A stretch of DNA of 64,000 nucleotides from Gammaproteobacteria bacterium (lineage in GTDB: Bacteria; Pseudomonadota; Gammaproteobacteria; Arenicellales; JAANXG01): positions 35,902-99,901 of the forward strand of contig JAHEKE010000006.1 in assembly GCA_024638505.1 (NCBI GenBank), written 5' to 3'. Shown one piece after another: positions 4,001-14,628 of this stretch; the stretch's first letter is position 1, and every line of letters begins with the position of its first letter. The notes beneath the pieces are model-generated. The model was not told the origin of the DNA. It was given only the letters and a program-made list of their open reading frames with translations, and ran no database searches. The translations under genes were made by a program, and so were the position numbers.

Positions 4001-5344
4001 CTAGGCCGTGGTGGCCCAGAGGTCGTGCGCATCTGTCCGCTGAACGATCCCTTGCACCAGATCGCCTGATCGCAGCTGCGTCGTGTCCAGAAAAACACTG
4101 CCGTCTATTTCTGGCGCGTCGGCAAAGCTGCGACCAGTGGCGCGGTGCTCGTCGACTTCATCAATCAGGATGTCAATGGATTGCCCTATTTTTCGCTTGA
4201 GACGCGCAGCGCTGATTTGCTCCTGCACCTGCATCAGCCGCACATAGCGCTCGTCTTTGATTTCTTCCGGCACTGCGTTAGGTAGCGCATTTGCCGTTGC
4301 GCCCGCTACCGGTGAGTATTTGAAGCAACCAACCCGATCGAGCTGCGCCGCCTGCAGAAAATCAAGCAGTTTACTGAAATCCGCATCCGTTTCACCCGGA
4401 AAACCAACAATAAATGTGCTCCTGATGCACAGATCAGGACAAATCTCTCGCCAGCTGTCGATTCTGCTTAACGTGTCTTCGGTTGCTGCCGGTCTTTTCA
4501 TCAGCTTTAGAATACGATGACTGCCATGCTGGAAGGGTATGTCCAGGTACGGCAGTATTCTGCCTTCAGCCATCAAAGGAAGTAGTTCATCGACGTGTGG
4601 ATAAGGATAGACATAGTGCAAACGGATCCATACCCCGAGCGAACCCAGAGCCTGGCACAAGTTGAACATGCGGGTTTTTACGGGCTGCCCTCGCCAGAAA
4701 CTCGTACGGTATTTAACGTCAACTCCATAAGCGCTGGTGTCCTGCGATACGATGAGTAACTCCTTAACCCCGGCTCTGACCAGGCCCTCCGCCTCCTGCA
4801 TAATCTCCCCGGCTGGCCGGCTGATTAGTTTGCCGCGCAGGGATGGGATAATGCAGAACGTACAGCGATGGTTACAACCCTCCGCGATCTTAATGTATGC
4901 GTAGTGCGGCGGAGTCAGCTTGATGCCGTGAGCAGGAATCAGGTGGGTAAATGGATCATACTCCTCCATCGGTGGAAGGTATTGGCGCACCATTTGCATC
5001 ACTTCAACGTAGGCATTGGGGCCGGTGATTCCAAGGACCTGAGGGAAATGGCGCTGAATTTCGTCGCGTTTAGCACCCAAGCATCCGGTGACAATGACTT
5101 TGCCATTTTCACTGAGCGCTGTGCCAATGGCCTGCAGCGACTCCGTCTTGGCGGCGTCGATAAATCCACAGGTATTGACGATGACCAGATCCGCCTGGTC
5201 GTACGTCGGAACCAGGTCGTAACCTTCGGTTCGCAGCTGGGTAACAATTCTCTCTGAATCGACCAGAGCTTTGGGGCACCCCAGACTGACGAAACCAACT
5301 CTATTGCTCATAGCTGGAGCTGTTCCAGTGATCGGTTGAAGCAT
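4001..5344 (-). CDS. rimO: Ribosomal protein S12 methylthiotransferase RimO
   Basis: [11 protein letters not shown]-terminal MTTase cluster, radical SAM box [15 protein letters not shown] and a C-terminal TRAM domain. Collinear with E. coli RimO. An alternative ATG at 5311 ([12 protein letters not shown]) may be the true start. Confidence 0.95.
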
Positions 5345-5478
5345 GATTGCGATAATGCGCTGTGCTTCGGATTGTACCTGCTTTTAGCATGTCGTACGCT
5401 GCTCTGGTGCGATCATGTGCGCATGTGATCAAGTTGGGTTAATATGACAAGATCTTTTTAACGCCATGATTCCACCTT

Positions 5479-6450
5479 ATGCTGGCTGAATTTGCTGCAC
5501 CGGTTTCTGATTCTCGATTCATAATCGAAAATTTCGAACCAGCTTACCTGCAGCTGCAGCGCAAGGATCTGTTACAGCAGCGCGTAAAAACGGCTCTACA
5601 CGAGCTCGAGGATTGCTGCGCTTGTCCGCGAAACTGTCACGTCAATCGGCTGAGAAATGAGCGCAAAGTTTGCCACACCGGTCGTCATGCTGTTGTCTCC
5701 AGCGCCTTCGCCCACTTCGGAGAGGAAGATTGTCTGCGCGGATGGCGCGGCTCGGGCACGATATTTTTTGGGCTATGTAATCTACGCTGCGTGTTTTGTC
5801 AGAATTGGGATATATCGCAGCAGCGCGACGGACAGGAATGTAATGCAGGAGAGATAGCTGATCTGATGCTTGCACTGCAGACACAGGGTTGTCACAACAT
5901 AAACTTTGTGACCCCCGAACACGTGGCCCCACAAGTCGTAGAAGCCGTCGCCGCCGCGGTCCCGCGCGGGCTGCGGTTGCCTATTGTCTATAACACCAGT
6001 GCGTATGATGCGCTGCCATCATTGCGATTGATGGACGGCATCGTCGATATATATATGCCTGACTTTAAGTTCTGGCGCAAGGAAACTGCACGGCAGCTGG
6101 GCAAAGCGAAGGATTACCCGGAGCGGGCGCGCAGCGCTATCGAGGAAATGTATAGACAGGTGGGCGTATTGCGTATGGGTAAAGACGGTTTGGCCAGGCG
6201 GGGCGTTCTCGTCAGGCATCTGGTTATGCCGGGCATGATTGATGAAACACGGGCGATATGTGAATGGTTGGCAAAGAATCTATCGGCAGACACTTATCTC
6301 AATCTTATGAATCAGTACAGGCCTCAGTTTCAAGTGGCGGAATTCGCAAAGTACGCAGCAATCAACCGACGCCCCAAGCGCCAGGAAATCGCGCAGTCTG
6401 TACAGGCTGCAAGAGAATCAGGCCTGTGGCGTCTTGACGCCAGACGTTGA
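5479..6450 (+). CDS. PflX-like radical SAM protein (COG1313-type putative activase)
   Basis: CNLRCVFCQNWDIS radical SAM cluster motif plus an upstream Cys-rich stretch (CCACPRNCHVNR). The size and layout fit PflX-like proteins. Confidence 0.8.
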   Translation: MLAEFAAPVSDSRFIIENFEPAYLQLQRKDLLQQRVKTALHELEDCCACPRNCHVNRLRNERKVCHTGRHAVVSSAFAHFGEEDCLRGWRGSGTIFFGLCNLRCVFCQNWDISQQRDGQECNAGEIADLMLALQTQGCHNINFVTPEHVAPQVVEAVAAAVPRGLRLPIVYNTSAYDALPSLRLMDGIVDIYMPDFKFWRKETARQLGKAKDYPERARSAIEEMYRQVGVLRMGKDGLARRGVLVRHLVMPGMIDETRAICEWLAKNLSADTYLNLMNQYRPQFQVAEFAKYAAINRRPKRQEIAQSVQAARESGLWRLDARR

Positions 6451-6644
6451 TTGAAAAATTATGTTGTGTTCTTCTTTAACTGGAGCACGGCGTCTCGCTT
6501 AATAAACAATAAAACAAATGCGTAGGTTTGATCACTGTTGAAAGCAATTAATAAATGCGAGTTCGGGCATGTATCGCTCGCTTGGAGCTCATGCTCCTGG
6601 TTATTGTTGTTGGCACTTAGGTATGCCGTGTCGGTGAAGAAAGC

Positions 6645-7544
6645 ATGACTTCCTTCGTCGAGTATTTCAGATCCGTGGCGGAAATCTCTGACCCAAAACA
6701 GTACCGTAATACACTGATGCAGCTTCCCGATGATCCAGCAGATATCTGCGATGCCATTCAAGGTTTGATTATTCATCCGTACTGGCTGGAAAAGTACGGG
6801 GCAGAGATTGAAGATGACCGGATTAAGCATGAACTCCAGGCAAGAAGCGTTTGCGATATACTCGATAATATCCACCAGCTGCAGAACATTCCGCTCGACA
6901 AGGCGCGTCCCCCGTCAATGCGAACGGTGGGCACCTGCAGGAATTTCGCCCTACTGCTGTGCAGTATCTTGCGAAGCAAAAACATAGCTGCGCGCTTGAG
7001 GTGCGGTTTTGCTACTTATTTCGAAAAGCAGCAATATGTGGACCACTGGATTTGCGAATATTGGTCCGATGCAGAAAAATATTGGGCGAGGGTTGATCCC
7101 CAGTTGGACGAGCTGCAGATCAATACACTGAACATAAAATTTGATCCATGCAACATCCCCATCGATGCTTATTTGTATGCCGGTGAAGCGTGGACGATGT
7201 GTCGGCGGGAAAGGGCGGACCCGCAGGCTTTCGGAATACGGGAAATCAGGGGGCTGGGTTTTATCAAAGGCAACATCGTGCGCGATATCCTCGCTTTGAA
7301 CAAGATTGAGACGCTGCCCTGGGACCTTGGTTGGGGGATACTGTATGAAAACTACCTCGACCAGATCGATCGGTCGGAGTTTGGCTATGTCGATCGACTA
7401 GCTAGGTGCAGTGCAAACTCGCTGGTCCACCTCGCACATAGTTTTTTTCTGGATGATGAAAAAATTCGATTCCCAGAAGACTGGAGTTGGGCCAGGGCGC
7501 CGACATTCGCTGAACTTGCAGAAGTGAGAGGCAGCAGTTCCTGA
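6645..7544 (+). CDS. Transglutaminase-like cysteine protease fold protein
   Basis: Candidate Cys-His-Asp triad in GTCRNFALLL, DHWICEYW and RVDP. No signal peptide. Confidence 0.6.
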   Translation: MTSFVEYFRSVAEISDPKQYRNTLMQLPDDPADICDAIQGLIIHPYWLEKYGAEIEDDRIKHELQARSVCDILDNIHQLQNIPLDKARPPSMRTVGTCRNFALLLCSILRSKNIAARLRCGFATYFEKQQYVDHWICEYWSDAEKYWARVDPQLDELQINTLNIKFDPCNIPIDAYLYAGEAWTMCRRERADPQAFGIREIRGLGFIKGNIVRDILALNKIETLPWDLGWGILYENYLDQIDRSEFGYVDRLARCSANSLVHLAHSFFLDDEKIRFPEDWSWARAPTFAELAEVRGSSS

Positions 7545-7583
7545 CAGCCCGCCAACACCGTTGCGCTGCCAGCCCCAATGATG

Positions 7584-8267
7584 TTATGCCAGGAGCTCTG
7601 CGATGTGCTGGATTTCAAAGTCCGCCTGCGCTCGCCTTTGAGATAGAACACCAACGCCATCAAGGAACTGCAGGGTGATCGCAGTATCGATACCAACCAT
7701 TTTGGCGCCGCTTAATTCGTCGTTACCACCGTCACCAATAAAAAGGCATTGATCAGGGCCCACTCTAAGCTGCTCCAGGCTATGCAGATATATCTCCTTT
7801 TCGGGTTTGACATATCCGGTATGGCAGGAGAAAACCGCGCTGTCGAAGTAGGTAGAGATTTCTGTCCGGAACCAACTGTCGATCTCGATGCTGTCCGCGT
7901 TACTGATAAGCCCGAGAGCTTTACCCTGTTGCTTTAATTTACGTATGGTGTCCATAACATCAGGGTCGACAGTGGACAGCACGGTTTCAAACTGCCGCAG
8001 TCTTAACTGCGCTGCGCGTTCGGTTTTTGCCTGAGCTACACTCGGCTCAATCTTGCAAACAATGTCCCTGATGACTTCATTTGGATGCTTCACATCACCC
8101 CTTAATCTGCCTTCGGCATCGCTGAACAATGCATGGCGCCATCGTTCCTCGGAGATACCCAGGTAGTCCCAGGCATTGCAGTCCTGGCCGGCTGTGTTTC
8201 CCAGGCTGACTAGTGTGTGAAACAGATCAAAAACAACCGCATCGTACTTTTTAATATCCGGTTTCAC
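7584..8267 (-). CDS. HAD-superfamily hydrolase (subfamily IA-like)
   Basis: Motif I is VVFDLFHTLV (D-x-F-x-T, closer to the 2-haloacid dehalogenase D-x-Y-x-T type than the phosphatase DxDxT type). ISNAD and a C-terminal GDGGNDE motif are present. Confidence 0.75.
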   Translation of the reverse strand: MKPDIKKYDAVVFDLFHTLVSLGNTAGQDCNAWDYLGISEERWRHALFSDAEGRLRGDVKHPNEVIRDIVCKIEPSVAQAKTERAAQLRLRQFETVLSTVDPDVMDTIRKLKQQGKALGLISNADSIEIDSWFRTEISTYFDSAVFSCHTGYVKPEKEIYLHSLEQLRVGPDQCLFIGDGGNDELSGAKMVGIDTAITLQFLDGVGVLSQRRAQADFEIQHIAELLA

Positions 8268-8347: not shown

Positions 8348-8689
8348 TCAATCCGATCGAGGTGGGGTCATGGGAATGGGAAAAGGCGTGATTTTCCCGG
8401 TTTTCTCGTCACTGCTGGCGATGATTTTATTCTTGCCCTCTTTCTCCACTTCGTCAATTCTGACCACCGCGTGTAGCGGTAAATAGGTGCGCTTCACGCC
8501 GGAAAATTGAGACTTAAGCTGTTCCTCGGAAGGATCAACCACTAATTTAGAGCGCTCACCGAAAATAATGTCACCCACCTCAATGAATGCGTAAAAACTA
8601 TTTTGACTGACCTCGTGGGCATACAATTCAATGATACTACCCTGGTTATGAAAAATGACCCGATAGATACTCTTTTTCTGCTCGCTCAT
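8348..8689 (-). CDS. Small conserved protein, DUF1820-like
   Basis: 113 aa. The pattern IYRVIF.NQG...ELYA..V....YGFIEV...FGE...VVDPSEE.LK..F.GVKR...P.H...RIDEVEKEG matches my recollection of the gammaproteobacterial DUF1820 family. Confidence 0.5.
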   Translation of the reverse strand: MSEQKKSIYRVIFHNQGSIIELYAHEVSQNSFYAFIEVGDIIFGERSKLVVDPSEEQLKSQFSGVKRTYLPLHAVVRIDEVEKEGKNKIIASSDEKTGKITPFPIPMTPPRSD

Positions 8690-8977: not shown

Positions 8978-10684
8978 TTGACTAACGCAAACAGGAATAC
9001 CGCTGCGGGTCATTTGCGCGTTTTTCTAGATCAGCTCAGACGAGTGTATCGAGCTGGAGCCGCATCAACGGTGGCGGATCAAAAAACGCTTTTATCCCTC
9101 GCTCTCAGTATCACGGGGCTAGATGATTGGATAATCGGGCAAGGGCGTTTGAGACCACTGCAAGTTGCCGTGATCGGACCTACCCAGGTCGGCAAGAGTA
9201 CGCTCGTGAATTTACTGCTGGGCGTGGAGCAGGCAGAGGCCAGCGCTCTCGCCGCCTACACGGAGCGGCTTTACGGATTCAGCCAGCCCAGCGTGCAAGG
9301 TGATGCTGACTGGATAACGGATATCTTGCACGACGCTGCCCTGACTCTACAACCGGTTAAGCGGCCGTTTCCCATTGATGCCATTGTATGGGATACGCCT
9401 GATTTTGACTCTCATCGTTCGCATCAATACAGGGAACTCATAGCACGTGTAGCGGCGTTGGCCGATGTGTTGGTTTTGGTAGTGAGTAAGGAGAAATACG
9501 CAGACCTGTCAGTATGGCAGACACTTCAGCTGCTGCAGCCATTACAGCGGACATTGATCATATGCCTGAACAAGGTCTCTGCGGATGAGCAGGTTATAAA
9601 AAATGCTTTAGTTGACCGTCTAAGTGAATCCGACTGGGGCAAGATGAATGTGCCAATATTGACTCTTCCATACATTGACAAAGACAGCGTATTTGGGGCA
9701 CTGGCGCGATCGGAGCAGATAGCCAGGCTGAAAACCCAGGTGCTTGACCCGCACAATTTCTGCAGCGAGGAGAACCGCCTGCGCGGTATACAGCGGGTGA
9801 TCGTGCAAAACTGGGACGGCTGGCTGTTGCCAGTAAGGCATGAAATCGGTGCCGCTGATAGTTGGCAAGCAAAAGTAGATCAATGCCTCAAAGGTGCGCT
9901 GATCGACTATCGGGCGCAGTATCTTGCTCATGATCATCACGATGATGCCTTCAACCAGACCATTTTACAGCTGCTTGAACTGCTGGAGATTCCCGCTCTC
10001 AGCGAGCCGTTGTCAAAAGTAAGGCGGGTGTTGACCTGGCCGGCGCGGAAAATGTTTGGGGTTTGGCAGCAGCAGACTGGTAGGCGGGCAAAGGAGCAAT
10101 CAGAGAACATTATATTGGCAGATATTATTGACCATGCCTTGCTGGTGCTGCGCATGTCAGTCACGCAAAATGTTACAGAGCAGGGCCAGGTTGGCCTGTG
10201 GTGGGGTGCCCTAAGTCGTGTGTATCACGACAAAGCGGAAAAAATTAGACACCAGTTTCCCGTTTCGGTTAATGATTATCAAAAAGAATTTGCTCCAGAA
10301 ATTGAAAAAGCGGCGCGCTTAATTTACGTTCGCTTGCAGCAGAATCCCGTAGTCCTGAATGCGCTGCGCGCCACTCGACTCAGCGCGGACTTAGCCGGTG
10401 TAGTAATCGCGGTAAAAACGGGCTCTATAGGGATAAGTGAGGCATTGTTGACTCCTGCCATGCTATCGGTGACGTCAGTGCTAACCGAGGGTGCGGTTGG
10501 TAAATACGTAGGCTCGGTGCGTGAACAGTTAAAGCAACAGCAGTACGAGCTGGTGCAGAGGCTGCTGCAAGAACAGTTTGCCGCACCCTTGCTGAATCTT
10601 GAGTTGGAACTGCCTGGTCTGTTCAACGTCAGTGAACGAAAACTCGGGCAGGCGGAAACCGCGTTACAGGAACTGCTTGCTTGA
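8978..10684 (+). CDS. P-loop GTPase-domain protein 1 (dynamin/Era-like, atypical G motifs)
   Basis: TTG start. G1 is VIGPTQVGKST, the G3-position motif is WDTPDFDS and the G4-position motif is CLNKVS. A helical extension of about 300 aa ends in a Gly/Ala/Val-rich hydrophobic segment (LAGVVIAVKTGSIGISEALLTPAMLSVTSVL). Confidence 0.7.
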   Translation: MTNANRNTAAGHLRVFLDQLRRVYRAGAASTVADQKTLLSLALSITGLDDWIIGQGRLRPLQVAVIGPTQVGKSTLVNLLLGVEQAEASALAAYTERLYGFSQPSVQGDADWITDILHDAALTLQPVKRPFPIDAIVWDTPDFDSHRSHQYRELIARVAALADVLVLVVSKEKYADLSVWQTLQLLQPLQRTLIICLNKVSADEQVIKNALVDRLSESDWGKMNVPILTLPYIDKDSVFGALARSEQIARLKTQVLDPHNFCSEENRLRGIQRVIVQNWDGWLLPVRHEIGAADSWQAKVDQCLKGALIDYRAQYLAHDHHDDAFNQTILQLLELLEIPALSEPLSKVRRVLTWPARKMFGVWQQQTGRRAKEQSENIILADIIDHALLVLRMSVTQNVTEQGQVGLWWGALSRVYHDKAEKIRHQFPVSVNDYQKEFAPEIEKAARLIYVRLQQNPVVLNALRATRLSADLAGVVIAVKTGSIGISEALLTPAMLSVTSVLTEGAVGKYVGSVREQLKQQQYELVQRLLQEQFAAPLLNLELELPGLFNVSERKLGQAETALQELLA

Positions 10685-12225
10685 ATAAGGATTTCACCAG
10701 CTGCTATGCGACCGTTAAGCGCTGGGCTTTATCCGCCCAGTCCGCCCAGTGGCTGGACGCGGCTGACATAGGGCTTCTCAACAGACTGGAGACCGAATCA
10801 GCAGATGATCTGTTCGCTGCGGAAAAAGTCAGGCCGCTGGTGGTTGGATTTTTTGGCGGCACCGGCGCAGGTAAAAGCAGCCTGTTGAATCGACTGGCTG
10901 GAGAGACGGTGGCCACGGTAGGCGTCAAACGTCCGACATCGATGCGGGCAACGCTTTATCTGCATCATTCACAGACCATAACCTCTCTACCTAAAGAAAG
11001 CCCTATTTTAGAGACCGACACTCACTATCATTCCATACCGGACAAAAGCCACATTGCCTGGTTGGATATGCCGGATATCGACAGCGTGGAGCAGGCCAAC
11101 AGAACCCTGGCTCTGGCCTGGTTGCCCTATATAGACTGGCTTATCTATGTCACCACCCCGGAACGGTACAGAGACGATGTCGGCTGGGAATTGATCAGGC
11201 AGCGACAGAACAAGCATCATTGGCTGTTTGTCATCAACCACTGGGATGAGGCTAAAGCTTCACAACTGGATGAGTTTTGCTCGGATCTTAAAAGCGCTGG
11301 ATTCAGTGACCCAAAGGTTCTCCGCACCAGCTGTATTGCAGAAACGGAGGATGACTTTGCGCAACTGGAGCGGATCATTAACCAGGCTATCGAGGAGCAC
11401 GGACTGGCTGAGCTGCAGCGCGTGGGCATCCTGGCCAAATTCGAAGAACTTGACGTTATTGTGTCTTCTTTCCTGAGCAGGATAGGCAGCGAAGAGCAGT
11501 GGCAGCGCGTGCAGACCGACATCGCGCGTAAAATTGCTCAGCGTCTACGACTGTTCAAAGATCGACTTAGCACGGAAATAGAGGCAGTTGTGCAGCATTA
11601 CCCCGAGGCGCCGCCGCTGTGGCGGACAGAACGCAGCGCGCACAGTTTTATCAAACCCGATGTAGAGCAATTGATCTGGTCAAGTTACTGCGACCACCTG
11701 CTTGCCAATATCACCCCAGATGCCGCTGTCAGCGTGGAAAACGAGGGTCTGGCAAGCCGGCCTCTTGTTTCGGTGTTAGACCAGAGCTTGTCTACGGCCA
11801 AAACGGTAGTATTGGATGAAATGAATGACGGTTTAAGACAGGCTTTGGCCAATCCTGAGACCGCTTTGCAACGGAGGTTACGCCAACTGATGCGGTTCAT
11901 GTCCTTCGCATTACCCGCGGGCACGGGCGTATGGGCTGCGTTCAACGTGCTGCGCCGGTATCAGCAGGGTCTGGCCGGAGATGAACCATTTCTTGGAATC
12001 AATTTTGCAGTGCACAGCTTGTTGCTAATCGGCCTGGCTTGGTTCATTCCTTTTCTATTAAACCGCTGGTTACGTCCATCGCTGAGGGACGCGGCCCGCC
12101 GCGGGCTGCGCGATGGGTTAGACCGGGCGGTCGATGCCCTGTCTTCTGGGTTGAATCAGGCCTGCGTCAGTCTGCAAAAAGACCGGCAGGACCAGGCGCT
12201 GGCTTTGCGCAAGGAGTACGGCTAG
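10681..12225 (+). CDS. P-loop GTPase-domain protein 2 (paralogous architecture, C-terminal membrane segments)
   Basis: The TTG start overlaps the upstream stop (TTGA, 10681-10684). G1 is GGTGAGKSSLLNRL, the G3-position motif is LDMPDIDS and the G4-position motif is VINHWD. C-terminal hydrophobic helices: FALPAGTGVWAAFNVL and INFAVHSLLLIGLAWFIPFLL. Confidence 0.7.
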   Translation: MNKDFTSCYATVKRWALSAQSAQWLDAADIGLLNRLETESADDLFAAEKVRPLVVGFFGGTGAGKSSLLNRLAGETVATVGVKRPTSMRATLYLHHSQTITSLPKESPILETDTHYHSIPDKSHIAWLDMPDIDSVEQANRTLALAWLPYIDWLIYVTTPERYRDDVGWELIRQRQNKHHWLFVINHWDEAKASQLDEFCSDLKSAGFSDPKVLRTSCIAETEDDFAQLERIINQAIEEHGLAELQRVGILAKFEELDVIVSSFLSRIGSEEQWQRVQTDIARKIAQRLRLFKDRLSTEIEAVVQHYPEAPPLWRTERSAHSFIKPDVEQLIWSSYCDHLLANITPDAAVSVENEGLASRPLVSVLDQSLSTAKTVVLDEMNDGLRQALANPETALQRRLRQLMRFMSFALPAGTGVWAAFNVLRRYQQGLAGDEPFLGINFAVHSLLLIGLAWFIPFLLNRWLRPSLRDAARRGLRDGLDRAVDALSSGLNQACVSLQKDRQDQALALRKEYG

Positions 12226-12439: not shown

Positions 12440-12718
12440 ATGCTAAGTAATCAACGTTCGAAAAACGCGGCACTGCTACTGGTGATTATTCAGCTGTACC
12501 ACACGTTAATAGACAAAGGGGTCGTTTCTCACACTGATATCGCCAAGCCACTGGCTAAGGCCAGACATAATCTCAAGGGAGCAATGAATGACCCCGTGGT
12601 CGAGCAGCTGCTGGACAGCTTGTTGGACTATCTCGGTAACTATGATCCGCGTGACCCCGAGACACGCAGAAAGCAGTTCAAAATAATTGAGGGCGGGCTT
12701 TCAAGCGAAAAATGCTGA
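12440..12718 (+). CDS. Hypothetical small helical protein (92 aa)
   Basis: Strong SD (AAGGAG, 7 nt upstream of the ATG). No recognisable motif. Confidence 0.5.
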   Translation: MLSNQRSKNAALLLVIIQLYHTLIDKGVVSHTDIAKPLAKARHNLKGAMNDPVVEQLLDSLLDYLGNYDPRDPETRRKQFKIIEGGLSSEKC

Positions 12719-12801
12719 GCCTGTGCAAGACTCTTGTGGCGTCGAGCCGGGCCAAAGAAGTCGGTGATGCAAAGACTTGCCTGTCTGGCAGGTGCAAGAG
12801 A

Positions 12802-14628
12802 ATGACGTTGGGTCTCGCCGTAAGGCGCTGCGCCCGGATGCAGCTGCTGTTCGCCGCTTTAAGCATGCCCGGGACGGGTGCTTTCGCCAGCAGCGAATCC
12901 CCAGCGCTGCTGACCGATCCTTTTCTGCAGCTTCCCACTGAAAATGGTGTCCACGTAGTCTGGTTCACAGAGTGGCGTGGGAAGGATCACCGCGTCGTTT
13001 ACGGCACCGATTTCGCCCAAGTGGCCAGGGCGCATACGGTAAAGATGACTCGTCTGGCAGAGGATGGGCAATCCTGGGTCGGTAAGCAGAGCGCAGATGC
13101 AAGTGTTTATGACAGCTATGCGCCGCGAGATATATGGCGACATGAGGCTTACGCGGAGGGGCTGTCACCAGGGCAGCGTGTGCCTTATTTCGTCAGCAGC
13201 ACCGTCAAGCAGGGGGAGGTGGTAAACAGCGACCGCTTTACGCTTGCCCCGCTGCCGGCAAAAGGTCAAGCGCTTAAAATCTTGCTCACCAGTGACCACC
13301 AGTTAACCGCCATGACTACGGCTAATCTGCAGATGGTTGCGAGAGTCACTGGAGGCGTAGATGCCATTTTACTATCGGGTGACCTGCAAAACATGGCGGA
13401 CCGCGCTTCGGGTTGGTTCGATGACGCACGAGGTGGATCATTCTTTCCAGCGCTGCAGGGTAGGGCAAGCTTCGAACTTAAGGCAAAACGTATTGAGCAG
13501 GGTCAGACTGTGACATTGGCGCGGACGTACAACGGAGGTGAACTTATTCAGCACGCCCCACTCTTTCCAGTGATTGGGAATCATGACGTGATGGGCCGTT
13601 TTAATCCAGACGACAGCATCGCCACACAATTCGGCAATCCACAACCACGCGCTGTCGCGGAATCCCGCTATCAGCAGCTAGCCGAGCTGATTAATCCTTC
13701 CGGTAATCACGATCTGCGCCGCAGCTGGATTCAGGACAATTCATTCAATACCATAACTTACGAAGAAATCTTTACTCTACCCGCTGGCGCCCCCCAGGGT
13801 GAGCGCTACTATGCGCTAGAGTTTGGCGATTTGTATGTGATTGGTTTATTCACCACCCGTATCTGGCGACATCCGCACCTTAATCGGAAAAATCCGGGTA
13901 AGTACGATGAGCCCGCGGCGAGTATCGGCACCTCTGGCAGCTGGGGCTATGGTGACTTTATATTCGAAGATGTCGCTGTGGGTAGTGAGCAGCATGATTG
14001 GCTGCAGGGCATCCTGGCAAGCGAAAGATTCCAACGGGCGAAGCACCGCGTCGTTCTGATGCACCAGGGTCCGCATGGCTTGGGGCAGAATTACATTCCC
14101 GTATTCGCCCACCCCGTTCAGATTAAGGATAAAACGGATGCGGGTGATGTTGAATCAATACGTTACGAATATCCTTTGAAAAAAGATATCCTGGTCAATG
14201 ACGTGAGGCCCCTGCTGGAGCAATACCGCGTGCAGCTGGTGCTGCAGGGCCATAACCACGTCTGGTTTCGCTTGTATAAAGACGGCGTACACTACCTCGA
14301 AACTTCGAACGTAGGCAGCACCTTCGGCTGCTATGTGCCGGGCTATAAAACGCGGGCCTACTATCCCGACGATCCGCGTTTCGATGCGGGCAACTACGTG
14401 CTGGCGGGGGATCCCCATGGCCTGGCTGCAGATTATCCATCCGAGTTTTCACCACAAACCGATCAGGCGGGGAACGCACTGCCCTGCGTCAACAGCGACG
14501 AGATGACGGTTTTCAGCGTCCTGTACACGGATACGGGCTCGATAAAGAGCTACGTATTTGACACCCGCTACCCGGAATCGACGCCACGGATGTTCGATCA
14601 GTTTTTGCTTGGCAGCGGGTCTGATTGA
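12802..14628 (+). CDS. Secreted calcineurin-like metallophosphoesterase (purple-acid-phosphatase-like)
   Basis: Metallophosphoesterase blocks SDHQ, SGDLQN, GNHD, MHQGP and GHNH. An N-terminal signal-like sequence (MTLGLAVRRCARMQLLFAALSMPGTGAFA) precedes a PAP-type N-domain. I moved the start from 12712 to the ATG at 12802 because the longer ORF overlaps the upstream gene. Confidence 0.8.
   Translation: MTLGLAVRRCARMQLLFAALSMPGTGAFASSESPALLTDPFLQLPTENGVHVVWFTEWRGKDHRVVYGTDFAQVARAHTVKMTRLAEDGQSWVGKQSADASVYDSYAPRDIWRHEAYAEGLSPGQRVPYFVSSTVKQGEVVNSDRFTLAPLPAKGQALKILLTSDHQLTAMTTANLQMVARVTGGVDAILLSGDLQNMADRASGWFDDARGGSFFPALQGRASFELKAKRIEQGQTVTLARTYNGGELIQHAPLFPVIGNHDVMGRFNPDDSIATQFGNPQPRAVAESRYQQLAELINPSGNHDLRRSWIQDNSFNTITYEEIFTLPAGAPQGERYYALEFGDLYVIGLFTTRIWRHPHLNRKNPGKYDEPAASIGTSGSWGYGDFIFEDVAVGSEQHDWLQGILASERFQRAKHRVVLMHQGPHGLGQNYIPVFAHPVQIKDKTDAGDVESIRYEYPLKKDILVNDVRPLLEQYRVQLVLQGHNHVWFRLYKDGVHYLETSNVGSTFGCYVPGYKTRAYYPDDPRFDAGNYVLAGDPHGLAADYPSEFSPQTDQAGNALPCVNSDEMTVFSVLYTDTGSIKSYVFDTRYPESTPRMFDQFLLGSGSD

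Follow-up and report, generated by a model that had tools for sequence, protein, structure and literature searches.

Most bacterial dynamin-like proteins (DLPs) are encoded side by side in operons, as pairs that form heterotypic complexes, and the tip of the DLP trunk attaches to the membrane either transiently (paddle) or permanently (transmembrane, TM) (PMC6104087). The combination of an anchored partner with a soluble one is known from the long and short forms of OPA1 (PMC6104087). Here we describe a pair of adjacent genes, A and B, at positions 8978 to 12225 of a 64,000-nucleotide stretch of DNA from a member of the Arenicellales (Gammaproteobacteria bacterium, GenBank assembly GCA_024638505.1, contig JAHEKE010000006.1, positions 35,902 to 99,901 of the forward strand). 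This whole stretch is referred to as the window. We show that A and B are an obligate, translationally coupled pair of paralogous dynamin-fold nucleoside triphosphatases (NTPases) in which the nucleotide and Mg ligands are intact and switch II has the derived form DxPDxDS.

In P-loop GTPases few residues are as constant as the glycine of the G3 motif, DxxG, which senses the gamma-phosphate through its backbone amide and, by its flexibility, drives switch II. We know of no characterized member of the dynamin superfamily that lacks it. Replacement of this residue by Asp in both subunits of an obligate pair, in two phyla and with the other ligands invariant, amounts to a natural experiment on how a dynamin-type engine might do without this residue. 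Few bacterial dynamin pairs have been described, and the family extends their number by a widespread clade that has no name as yet. Its hosts include methanotrophs, sulfur oxidizers and animal symbionts, and cultured Methylovulum and Methylomonas make the question experimentally approachable.

The gene pair

The two genes and their junction are located in the window as follows.

8978..10684 (+): gene A, open reading frame (ORF) of 568 aa with a TTG start; dynamin-like, predicted soluble or peripheral partner
10681..12225 (+): gene B, ORF of 514 aa with a TTG start; dynamin-like, predicted membrane-anchored partner
10681..10684 (+): 4-nt overlap of A and B, made up of the A stop TGA (10682-10684) and the B start TTG (10681-10683)

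An earlier reading of the sequence alone (the sequence-only reading) had described two ORFs of 568 and 514 aa joined by a TTGA stop/start overlap, and both the coordinates and the junction, CTTGCTTGAATAAG (codons CTT GCT TGA, with the TTG of B at 10681), bear this out. The 4-nt overlap implies translational coupling. A search of 5.8 billion proteins found at least 901 homologues of A and at least 1173 of B, and a profile search of 1.84 billion representatives returned 388 A-type cluster representatives at 50% identity (E<=1e-30). Given these numbers, A and B are real genes and not chance ORFs. Among the matches listed, the closest homologues are 69% and 56-57% identical, and the closest named relatives, from Arenicellales, are ~54-56% identical. 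Public records give the proteins only generic labels ("GTPase domain-containing protein", "50S ribosome-binding GTPase", "G domain-containing protein").

The public annotation of A has 537 aa and begins at a GTG start at V32. Because the alignment with A homologues of 564-569 aa begins near residue 7, and because the AlphaFold2 (AF2) model of A has a confident N-terminal helix (residues 2-27, pLDDT 87-98), the TTG at 8978 is the better start. The deposited annotation is probably 31 codons too short (window 8978-9073).

Nucleotide-binding motifs

Conservation was counted in family alignments of 68 A and 71 B sequences, and 137 further A representatives were used as an additional motif check. 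The motifs are located as follows.

~Residues 58-245 of A (+): G domain, preceded by N-terminal helices and followed by a helical neck and trunk
9176..9199 (+): A P-loop GPTQVGKS (G67-S74), from translation; Q70, at the third P-loop position, invariant
9260..9262 (+): A switch-I T95, in the motif LAxxT; invariant in the family alignment
9392..9412 (+): A switch II/G3 DTPDFDS (D139-T-P-D142-F-D144-S145); invariant in 68/68
9485..9505 (+): A post-beta4 motif SKEKYAD; K173, Y174 and D176 invariant, aligns with SPERYRD of B
9569..9580 (+): A G4 NKVS (N198-K199-V-S); N invariant, K in 67/68
10855..10878 (+): B P-loop GGTGAGKS (G59-S66); G62, at the third P-loop position, invariant
10936..10938 (+): B switch-I T86; R84-P-T-S87 invariant
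11065..11085 (+): B switch II/G3 DMPDIDS (D129-M-P-D132-I-D134-S135); D129, P131, D132, D134 and S135 invariant in 71/71
11158..11187 (+): B post-beta4 motif PERYRDDVGW (residues 160-169); holds an invariant D165-x-x-G168 that is not G3
11236..11247 (+): B G4 NHWD (N186-H-W-D189); N and D invariant

Translation of the exact coordinates reproduced all six motifs of the sequence-only reading (GPTQVGKS, DTPDFDS and NKVS in A; GGTGAGKS, DMPDIDS and NHWD in B). The invariant or nearly invariant residues are G67, P68, T69, Q70, G72, K73, S74, T95, W138, D139, P141, D142, F143, D144, S145, K173, Y174, D176 and N198 in A, and G59, G60, T61, G62, G64, K65, S66, R84, P85, T86, S87, W127, D129, P131, D132, D134, S135, P160, R162, Y163, D165, G168, N186 and D189 in B. 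Two features of the dynamin superfamily, G1 of the form GxxxxGK[ST] and the switch-I Thr, are thus present without exception (68/68 in A, 71/71 in B), and the phosphate and Mg2+ ligands (P-loop Lys and Ser, switch-I Thr and Walker-B Asp) are invariant in both proteins.

G3 departs from the canonical dynamin motif DxxG. The first Asp is kept, but both paralogues have an invariant Asp where the Gly should be, as the sequence-only reading had claimed; DxPDxDS is essentially invariant in the family alignments. Proteins of the dynamin superfamily have a hydrophobic residue after G3 (PMC5084822), and this too is retained, as F143 in A and as I, F or M in B. In the further A representatives, WD[TS]PD[FIY]D[ST] and GPTQxGKS each occur in 135 of the 137. 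Planctomycetota and Granulosicoccaceae copies of B have WIDAPDIDS or WIDTPDVDS, together with NRWD or NQWD at G4.

That the Asp truly stands at G3 is supported by its position and by three alignments. In the AF2 models, DxPD comes right after strand beta3 (A 135-139, B 125-129) and before helix alpha2. The Pfam MMR_HSR1 model aligns end to end, over residues 62-199; in the PDB sequence search, the NKxD of Der aligns with LNKVS of A; and hhalign of the A family with Escherichia coli RdcA (YjdA), a bona fide dynamin of bacteria, places VWDTPDFDS on LLDTPGPNE and CLNK on VNKFD. The register is therefore secure, and mis-registration, which the sequence-only reading had left to be checked, can be set aside: DxPD is conserved and no canonical DxxG serves as G3 elsewhere. 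We found no conserved DxxG elsewhere in the G domain of A in the 68-sequence alignment. The sole other conserved DxxG is D165-x-x-G168 of B, and we rejected it as G3 because it lies at the wrong topological place, after beta4 at the start of alpha3, and its equivalent in A is D176-x-x-V179. This region forms a motif common to both paralogues, S-x-E-[KR]-Y-x-D...W (A residues 170-180, 9485-9517; B residues 160-169), that by its position resembles the trans-stabilizing loop of dynamin at the G interface.

The G4 motifs had been described as degenerate in both proteins, which holds for A and not for B. In A the specificity-Asp position is variable (S in 21, G in 13, D in 9, T in 8 and E in 5 of the 68 sequences). 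In B both N186 and D189 are invariant, also in the NRWD and NQWD variants, and guanine specificity should thus be kept, as predicted from these residues. EHD proteins, in which the G4 environment is altered, use ATP (PMC5084822). With this precedent, and because A lacks a conserved Asp in G4, its base specificity may be relaxed or different.

The third, variable position of the P-loop sets the catalytic strategy in the superfamily. At this position a Ser binds a monovalent cation in dynamin, mitofusin and many bacterial dynamin-like proteins (BDLPs), an Arg is found in GBP and atlastin, an Asn, which resembles the case of MnmE, in Fzo1, and a Gly in Irga6 (Gly79) (PMC5084822). The pair has none of Ser, Asn and Arg here; A invariably has Gln and B invariably Gly. 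With Asp in place of the G3 Gly, A and B probably bind or hydrolyze nucleotide in an unusual way.

The main rival explanation is that the pair is a hydrolysis-dead, nucleotide-binding "pseudo-GTPase" scaffold or switch that controls another membrane enzyme and is not a mechanochemical remodeler. We consider this unlikely, although the loss of the G3 Gly from both proteins, the lack of a conserved G4 Asp in A and the residues at the third P-loop position all speak for it. There is also a precedent: the bacterial DLP RdcA reportedly serves, with RdcB, as a regulator of the diguanylate cyclase DgcE (PMC13463826), and rdcA and rdcB are so annotated in E. coli K-12. However, the substituted residues, the phosphate and Mg ligands and the switch-I Thr are all invariant across Gammaproteobacteria and Planctomycetota, which indicates selected chemistry and not decay. 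Nor does the neighborhood of the pair, in the 80 loci compared (see below), hold a conserved third gene that might be the target.

Fold, paralogy and family placement

AF2 models built from the family alignments have pLDDT 87.6 and pTM 0.84 for A, and pLDDT 85.0 and pTM 0.69 for B. Both begin with one or two helices, continue into a Ras-like G domain in which strands and helices follow the canonical order, and then have helices of up to ~50 residues, so that the G domain is flanked by neck and trunk helix bundles, as is characteristic of the dynamin superfamily. The top Foldseek matches of both models in the PDB are exclusively dynamin-superfamily proteins, with E-values of 1e-8 to 1e-10. For A they are BDLP (2j68, 1.9e-8), Drp1, LeoA (4aur), the Campylobacter DLP pair (5owv_C, TMq 0.41), OPA1, Mgm1, IniA, mitofusin and Fzo1. 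For B they are 5oxf_C (5.6e-10), BDLP (2j69) and IniA (6j72), followed by Drp1, MxB, OPA1, IRGs, EHD and mitofusin. By their predicted structures, A and B have the dynamin-superfamily fold, and the suggestion that they are paired dynamin-like proteins gains support from models that match BDLP, Campylobacter DLP1/2, LeoA, IniA, Drp1, OPA1 and mitofusin first.

The G domains of A and B are paralogous, as shown by comparison of the two family alignments (hhalign probability 99%, E 7e-18). The alignment is confined to the G domains (A 56-293, B 50-265) and pairs GPTQxGKS with GGTGxGKS, WDTPDFDS with LDMPDIDS, VVSKEKYAD with VVSPERYRDD, and CLNK with MNHWD. The helical regions have no similarity to each other detectable by hhalign.

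Searches of Pfam, NCBIfam and PADLOC profiles placed neither protein in a characterized family. No family in these libraries covers the helical regions, and matches to the G domains are generic or below threshold. Pfam Dynamin_N is matched at E<1e-3 by 71/71 B and 42/68 A family members, and PF05049 (IIGP) by 6/71 members of the B family. Some public annotations imply that the proteins are ordinary ribosome-associated GTPases of the Era/Der type, an interpretation to which we give hardly any credence. It draws on MMR_HSR1 (33.0 bits for A and 22.2 for B, against a gathering cutoff of 21.9), the only Pfam model above cutoff, and on the best PDB sequence matches, which are Der and Era. However, the matches to Der, Era and YlqF from profile and single-sequence searches of the PDB were limited to the P-loop and switch I or to the generic G domain, and the NCBIfam matches to Era and Der are P-loop-region matches of 25-30 bits against cutoffs of 116-307, far from equivalog level. 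Pfam identified no KH domain and no other domain for RNA binding, the 300+ residues beyond the G domain are modeled as a helical neck and trunk of the dynamin type, and B has a predicted membrane hairpin.

Membrane and helical elements

Two hairpins in the helical regions may be involved in membrane attachment or partner contact.

11884..12066 (+): helical hairpin of B, residues 402-462, hydrophobic; predicted to anchor the trunk tip in the membrane (N-in/C-in)
10346..10489 (+): A Gly/Ala/Ser/Thr-rich amphipathic helical hairpin, residues 457-504; strongly conserved

The sequence-only reading had each protein continue into a helical region of 300+ aa ending in hydrophobic or membrane segments. 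The AF2 models agree with the helical part, but a clearly membrane-grade segment is found only in B, and in neither protein is the hydrophobic part C-terminal, as it is a hairpin with another 50-60 aa of helix after it. A lipid-binding or TM element at the trunk tip, a feature of dynamin-type proteins, is thus predicted for B, and A has only its conserved amphipathic hairpin.

In B, helices 395-431 and 440-463 form the hairpin region in the AF2 model. The maximum Kyte-Doolittle hydropathy over 19 residues (KD19) is 2.16 and exceeds 1.6 in 70/71 homologues (median 1.97). The flanks of the hairpin are basic (2.3 and 3.6 K+R per 15 residues) and its 12-residue loop has 0.9 K+R and 1.2 D+E, the positive-inside pattern of an N-in/C-in hairpin. 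A helix of 46 residues then returns along the trunk in the model, as in mitofusins.

The hairpin of A is only moderately hydrophobic (median KD19 1.51), with helices 457-481 and 486-504; 10-residue blocks over 471-490 average pLDDT 57-58. Its invariant residues include N461, R464, R467, D471, P493 and E504. It may be a paddle or a contact with the hairpin of B. Another strongly conserved part of A, residues 331-355 (9968-10042; LLELLEIPxL...R349..T353-W354-P355), borders the only disordered loop of the model (352-370, pLDDT <50) and may be a hinge or a partner-binding site.

Distribution and genomic context

Relatives of the pair are encoded in at least 578 species genomes, mainly of Gammaproteobacteria with some Planctomycetota, as found by a pattern scan of one genome per species. 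We examined the best 80 of these at least 578 loci, which belong to Arenicellales, Methylococcales, Chromatiales, Sedimenticolaceae, Granulosicoccaceae, Thiotrichales and several Planctomycetota. The Methylococcales carriers include cultured Methylovulum and Methylomonas and methanotrophic symbionts of mussels, and the tubeworm symbiont Endoriftia is among the protein matches. In 76 of the 80 loci B is the next gene downstream of A, and the other 4 are cut off by a contig end, so that the pairing holds in all 76 that can be tested. The A stop overlaps the B start in 70 of the 76, by 4 nt in 29 loci, by 20 nt in 22 (Methylococcales) and by 8 nt in 13.

Adjacency of A and B is the only conserved gene neighborhood of this widespread and always paired family. 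No third gene is conserved near the pair, either by tblastn of the window neighbors against the 80 loci or by all-against-all clustering of flanking ORFs, and what synteny there is follows lineages. The window neighbors are RimO, a radical-SAM protein, a transglutaminase-like protein, a HAD hydrolase, DUF1820, a metallophosphatase, MOSC and GNAT. These housekeeping neighbors agree with the core-like context free of mobile elements that had been noted earlier, and neither 72,556 plasmids nor 50,697 phage genomes gave a copy of the pair in tblastn searches. On these zero counts we rejected a mobile or defense origin.

The same evidence bears on whether the pair is a dynamin-like anti-phage defense system of the Eleos (LeoA/LeoBC) type, which we regard as quite improbable. 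LeoA and LeoBC are the best matches of both proteins in the PADLOC library (33.0/21.7 bits for A, 28.8/19.9 for B), LeoA (4aur) is among the top structural matches of A, and DynA-type DLPs reportedly take part in phage defense (PMC12998192). The likeness to Eleos raised by the sequence-only reading is confined to weak matches to the G domain (A 58-203 on positions 55-176 of the 559 in the LeoA model), which do not extend over the full length. Moreover, the neighbors in the window are not those of a defense island, copies on plasmids and phages are lacking in the above searches, and the stability of the two-gene unit across the surveyed species, with lineage-specific synteny and overlap lengths, is consistent with vertical descent rather than a patchy occurrence.

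Several lineage-level features were noted around the pair. A DUF1820 gene (124 bits; window 8348-8689, -) lies divergently upstream of A, and such a gene is upstream of the pair in 7 of the 80 loci (Arenicellales-like), which suggests synteny within the lineage more than a link in function. The Methylococcales loci with the 20-nt overlap (L021, L034, L046-L049, L054, L056, L059, L067-L069, L072, L075, L078-L080 and others) share two upstream ORFs at positions ~6400-7900, a lipoprotein-like one of ~140 aa in 22 loci and a helical one of ~234 aa in 15, neither of which was found outside that order in the 80 loci. One metagenome-assembled genome, MFD02923.bin.2.38, has an A-type gene on two separate contigs (L015 and L020), with B confirmed on L020 only, as L015 ends at a contig end. 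Either a second copy or a binning artifact could account for this.

No riboswitch or other Rfam element was found around the operon and no tRNA in the window, and a promoter and terminator scan gave matches at chance level relative to shuffled sequence. Downstream of the pair, a 92-aa ORF (12440-12718, +) has no Pfam match and, by tblastn, no counterpart in the 80 loci. Its last 7 nt are shared with the beginning of a metallophosphoesterase gene (638 aa; 12712-14628, +), the phosphoesterase domain of which begins only at residue 189, and the start given for this gene is tentative.

Proposed function

Judging from the models and by analogy, we think it moderately probable that A and B are a heterotypic, membrane-anchored pair of the BDLP/mitofusin type, encoded in a coupled two-gene operon and having a derived acidic switch II, that performs NTP-dependent work on membranes. 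B would be held in the cytoplasmic membrane by the hydrophobic hairpin, both its N and its C terminus facing the cytoplasm, and, given the invariant N186 and D189, it would bind GTP. A may be the soluble or peripheral subunit that is recruited to B, comparable to the situation in Cj-DLP1/2 or in the long and short forms of OPA1; the assignment of recruited and anchored roles follows the literature on the DLP family (PMC6104087). Nucleotide-dependent association of the two G domains could drive tethering, remodeling or repair of the inner membrane. More speculatively, the DxD carboxylates of switch II, near the gamma-phosphate, might hold a catalytic or charge-compensating cation and so replace the P-loop Ser, Asn or Arg of other dynamins.

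Several points weigh against this explanation. The idea of a switch-II cation is speculative. In Ras, G-alpha and EF-Tu, substitution of the G3 Gly cripples the switch or hydrolysis, and therefore A and B could bind nucleotide without hydrolyzing it. The match of the A family to RdcA that contributes to the G3 register is weak (E 4.5e-4, probability 33%), though both motifs are in register. Pfam Dynamin_N (PF00350) scores 25.1 bits for B and 18.2 for A, below its gathering cutoff of 27. Finally, comparison with solved DLPs gives low global TM-scores (0.2-0.4), which is not surprising for multidomain proteins with hinges but is not decisive; because of this, we base the fold assignment on the consistency and E-values of the Foldseek matches.

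With respect to the G3 substitution, Asp and Asn are, among non-Gly residues, those that best tolerate the left-handed backbone conformation often taken by such glycines, which could explain why Asp is acceptable there. A more far-reaching possibility, which we put forward tentatively, is that the pair represents a branch of dynamin-like NTPases with a mechanism of its own, in which the acidic D-x-D-S loop binds an additional metal or monovalent cation or acts as a general base, with catalysis and switching unlike those of any described TRAFAC GTPase. In addition, the complex would be asymmetric, with B guanine-specific (Gly P-loop) and A base-promiscuous or ATP-using (Gln P-loop).

Comparison with known systems

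The proposed membrane-anchored pair can be compared with several described systems. Like A and B, Cj-DLP1 and Cj-DLP2 of Campylobacter jejuni (Cj0411/Cj0412, PDB 5OWV/5OXF) are diverged DLP paralogues encoded as an adjacent operon pair, and they form a heterotypic complex (PMC6104087). They provide the best structural match of B (E 5.6e-10) and the best TM-score of A (0.41). However, sequence identity is only 11-14%, and the Campylobacter proteins are of 84.5 and 71.2 kDa, compared with the 568 and 514 aa encoded in the window. Their G1-G4 motifs are canonical (PMC6104087, figure), whereas G3 is DxPDxDS in A and B, and their tip is peripheral, in contrast to the strongly hydrophobic hairpin of B.

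BDLP1 of Nostoc punctiforme (2J68/2J69) has the same succession of N-terminal helices, G domain, neck, trunk and lipid-binding tip element, and is the top Foldseek match of A (1.9e-8). Unlike the pair, it was characterized as a single protein, it has a transient paddle, and its G3 is a canonical DxxG. PDB profile searches gave no sequence-level match of BDLP1 to the A or B family.

Mitofusins and Fzo1 (MFN1, MFN2) share with the pair, as proposed here, a hydrophobic hairpin for permanent attachment, the returning C-terminal helix after it, and the heterotypic pairing. They give good local structural matches to B (TMt up to 0.49, root-mean-square deviation 6-7 A). The G4 motif of mitofusins reads NRWD, so that B has a G4 of the same N-x-W-D type, and some B homologues have NRWD itself. 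A literature search for "NRWD" together with mitofusin returned nothing. In MFN2, Arg259-Trp260 are located at the G interface (PMC6820788). Mitofusins differ in being eukaryotic outer-membrane proteins with a canonical G3, and in having Ser or Asn at the third P-loop position (PMC5084822), where A has Gln and B has Gly. Sequence homology does not extend beyond the P-loop: in the PDB profile search with the B family, MFN1 and MFN2 appeared at E 0.2-0.3, for the P-loop only.

LeoA/LeoBC (Eleos) of enterotoxigenic E. coli is likewise a dynamin-like operon, and it provides the best PADLOC matches; 4aur ranks fourth among the structural matches of A. The PADLOC match is low-scoring and restricted to the G domain, and the pathogenicity or defense island in which that system is found contrasts with the core housekeeping context of A and B.

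Among eukaryotic proteins, the IRG family (Irga6; IIGP) resembles B in the P-loop, which is GGTG(V/A)GKS in B (type GxTGxGKS) and GETGSGKS in IRGs, with Gly at the third position in both, and IRGs are among the structural matches of B. The switch II of IRGs is DxPG, and their helical domain is different.

E. coli RdcA (YjdA/CrfC) and RdcB are encoded by genes that also overlap by 4 nt (rdcA 5136-7364, rdcB 7361-8239; locus L081, E. coli K-12), and the G3 and G4 regions of RdcA can be aligned with those of A. RdcA differs in having DTPG and NKFD, and RdcB, encoded by 879 nt, is by far the shorter of the two and has its own annotation. To our knowledge, RdcB is not a DLP paralogue.

No relevant publication was found for the motif strings of the family in a search of 8 million full texts. 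The paired bacterial dynamin-like operon is an arrangement already known, and what is new is this family and the chemistry of its switch.

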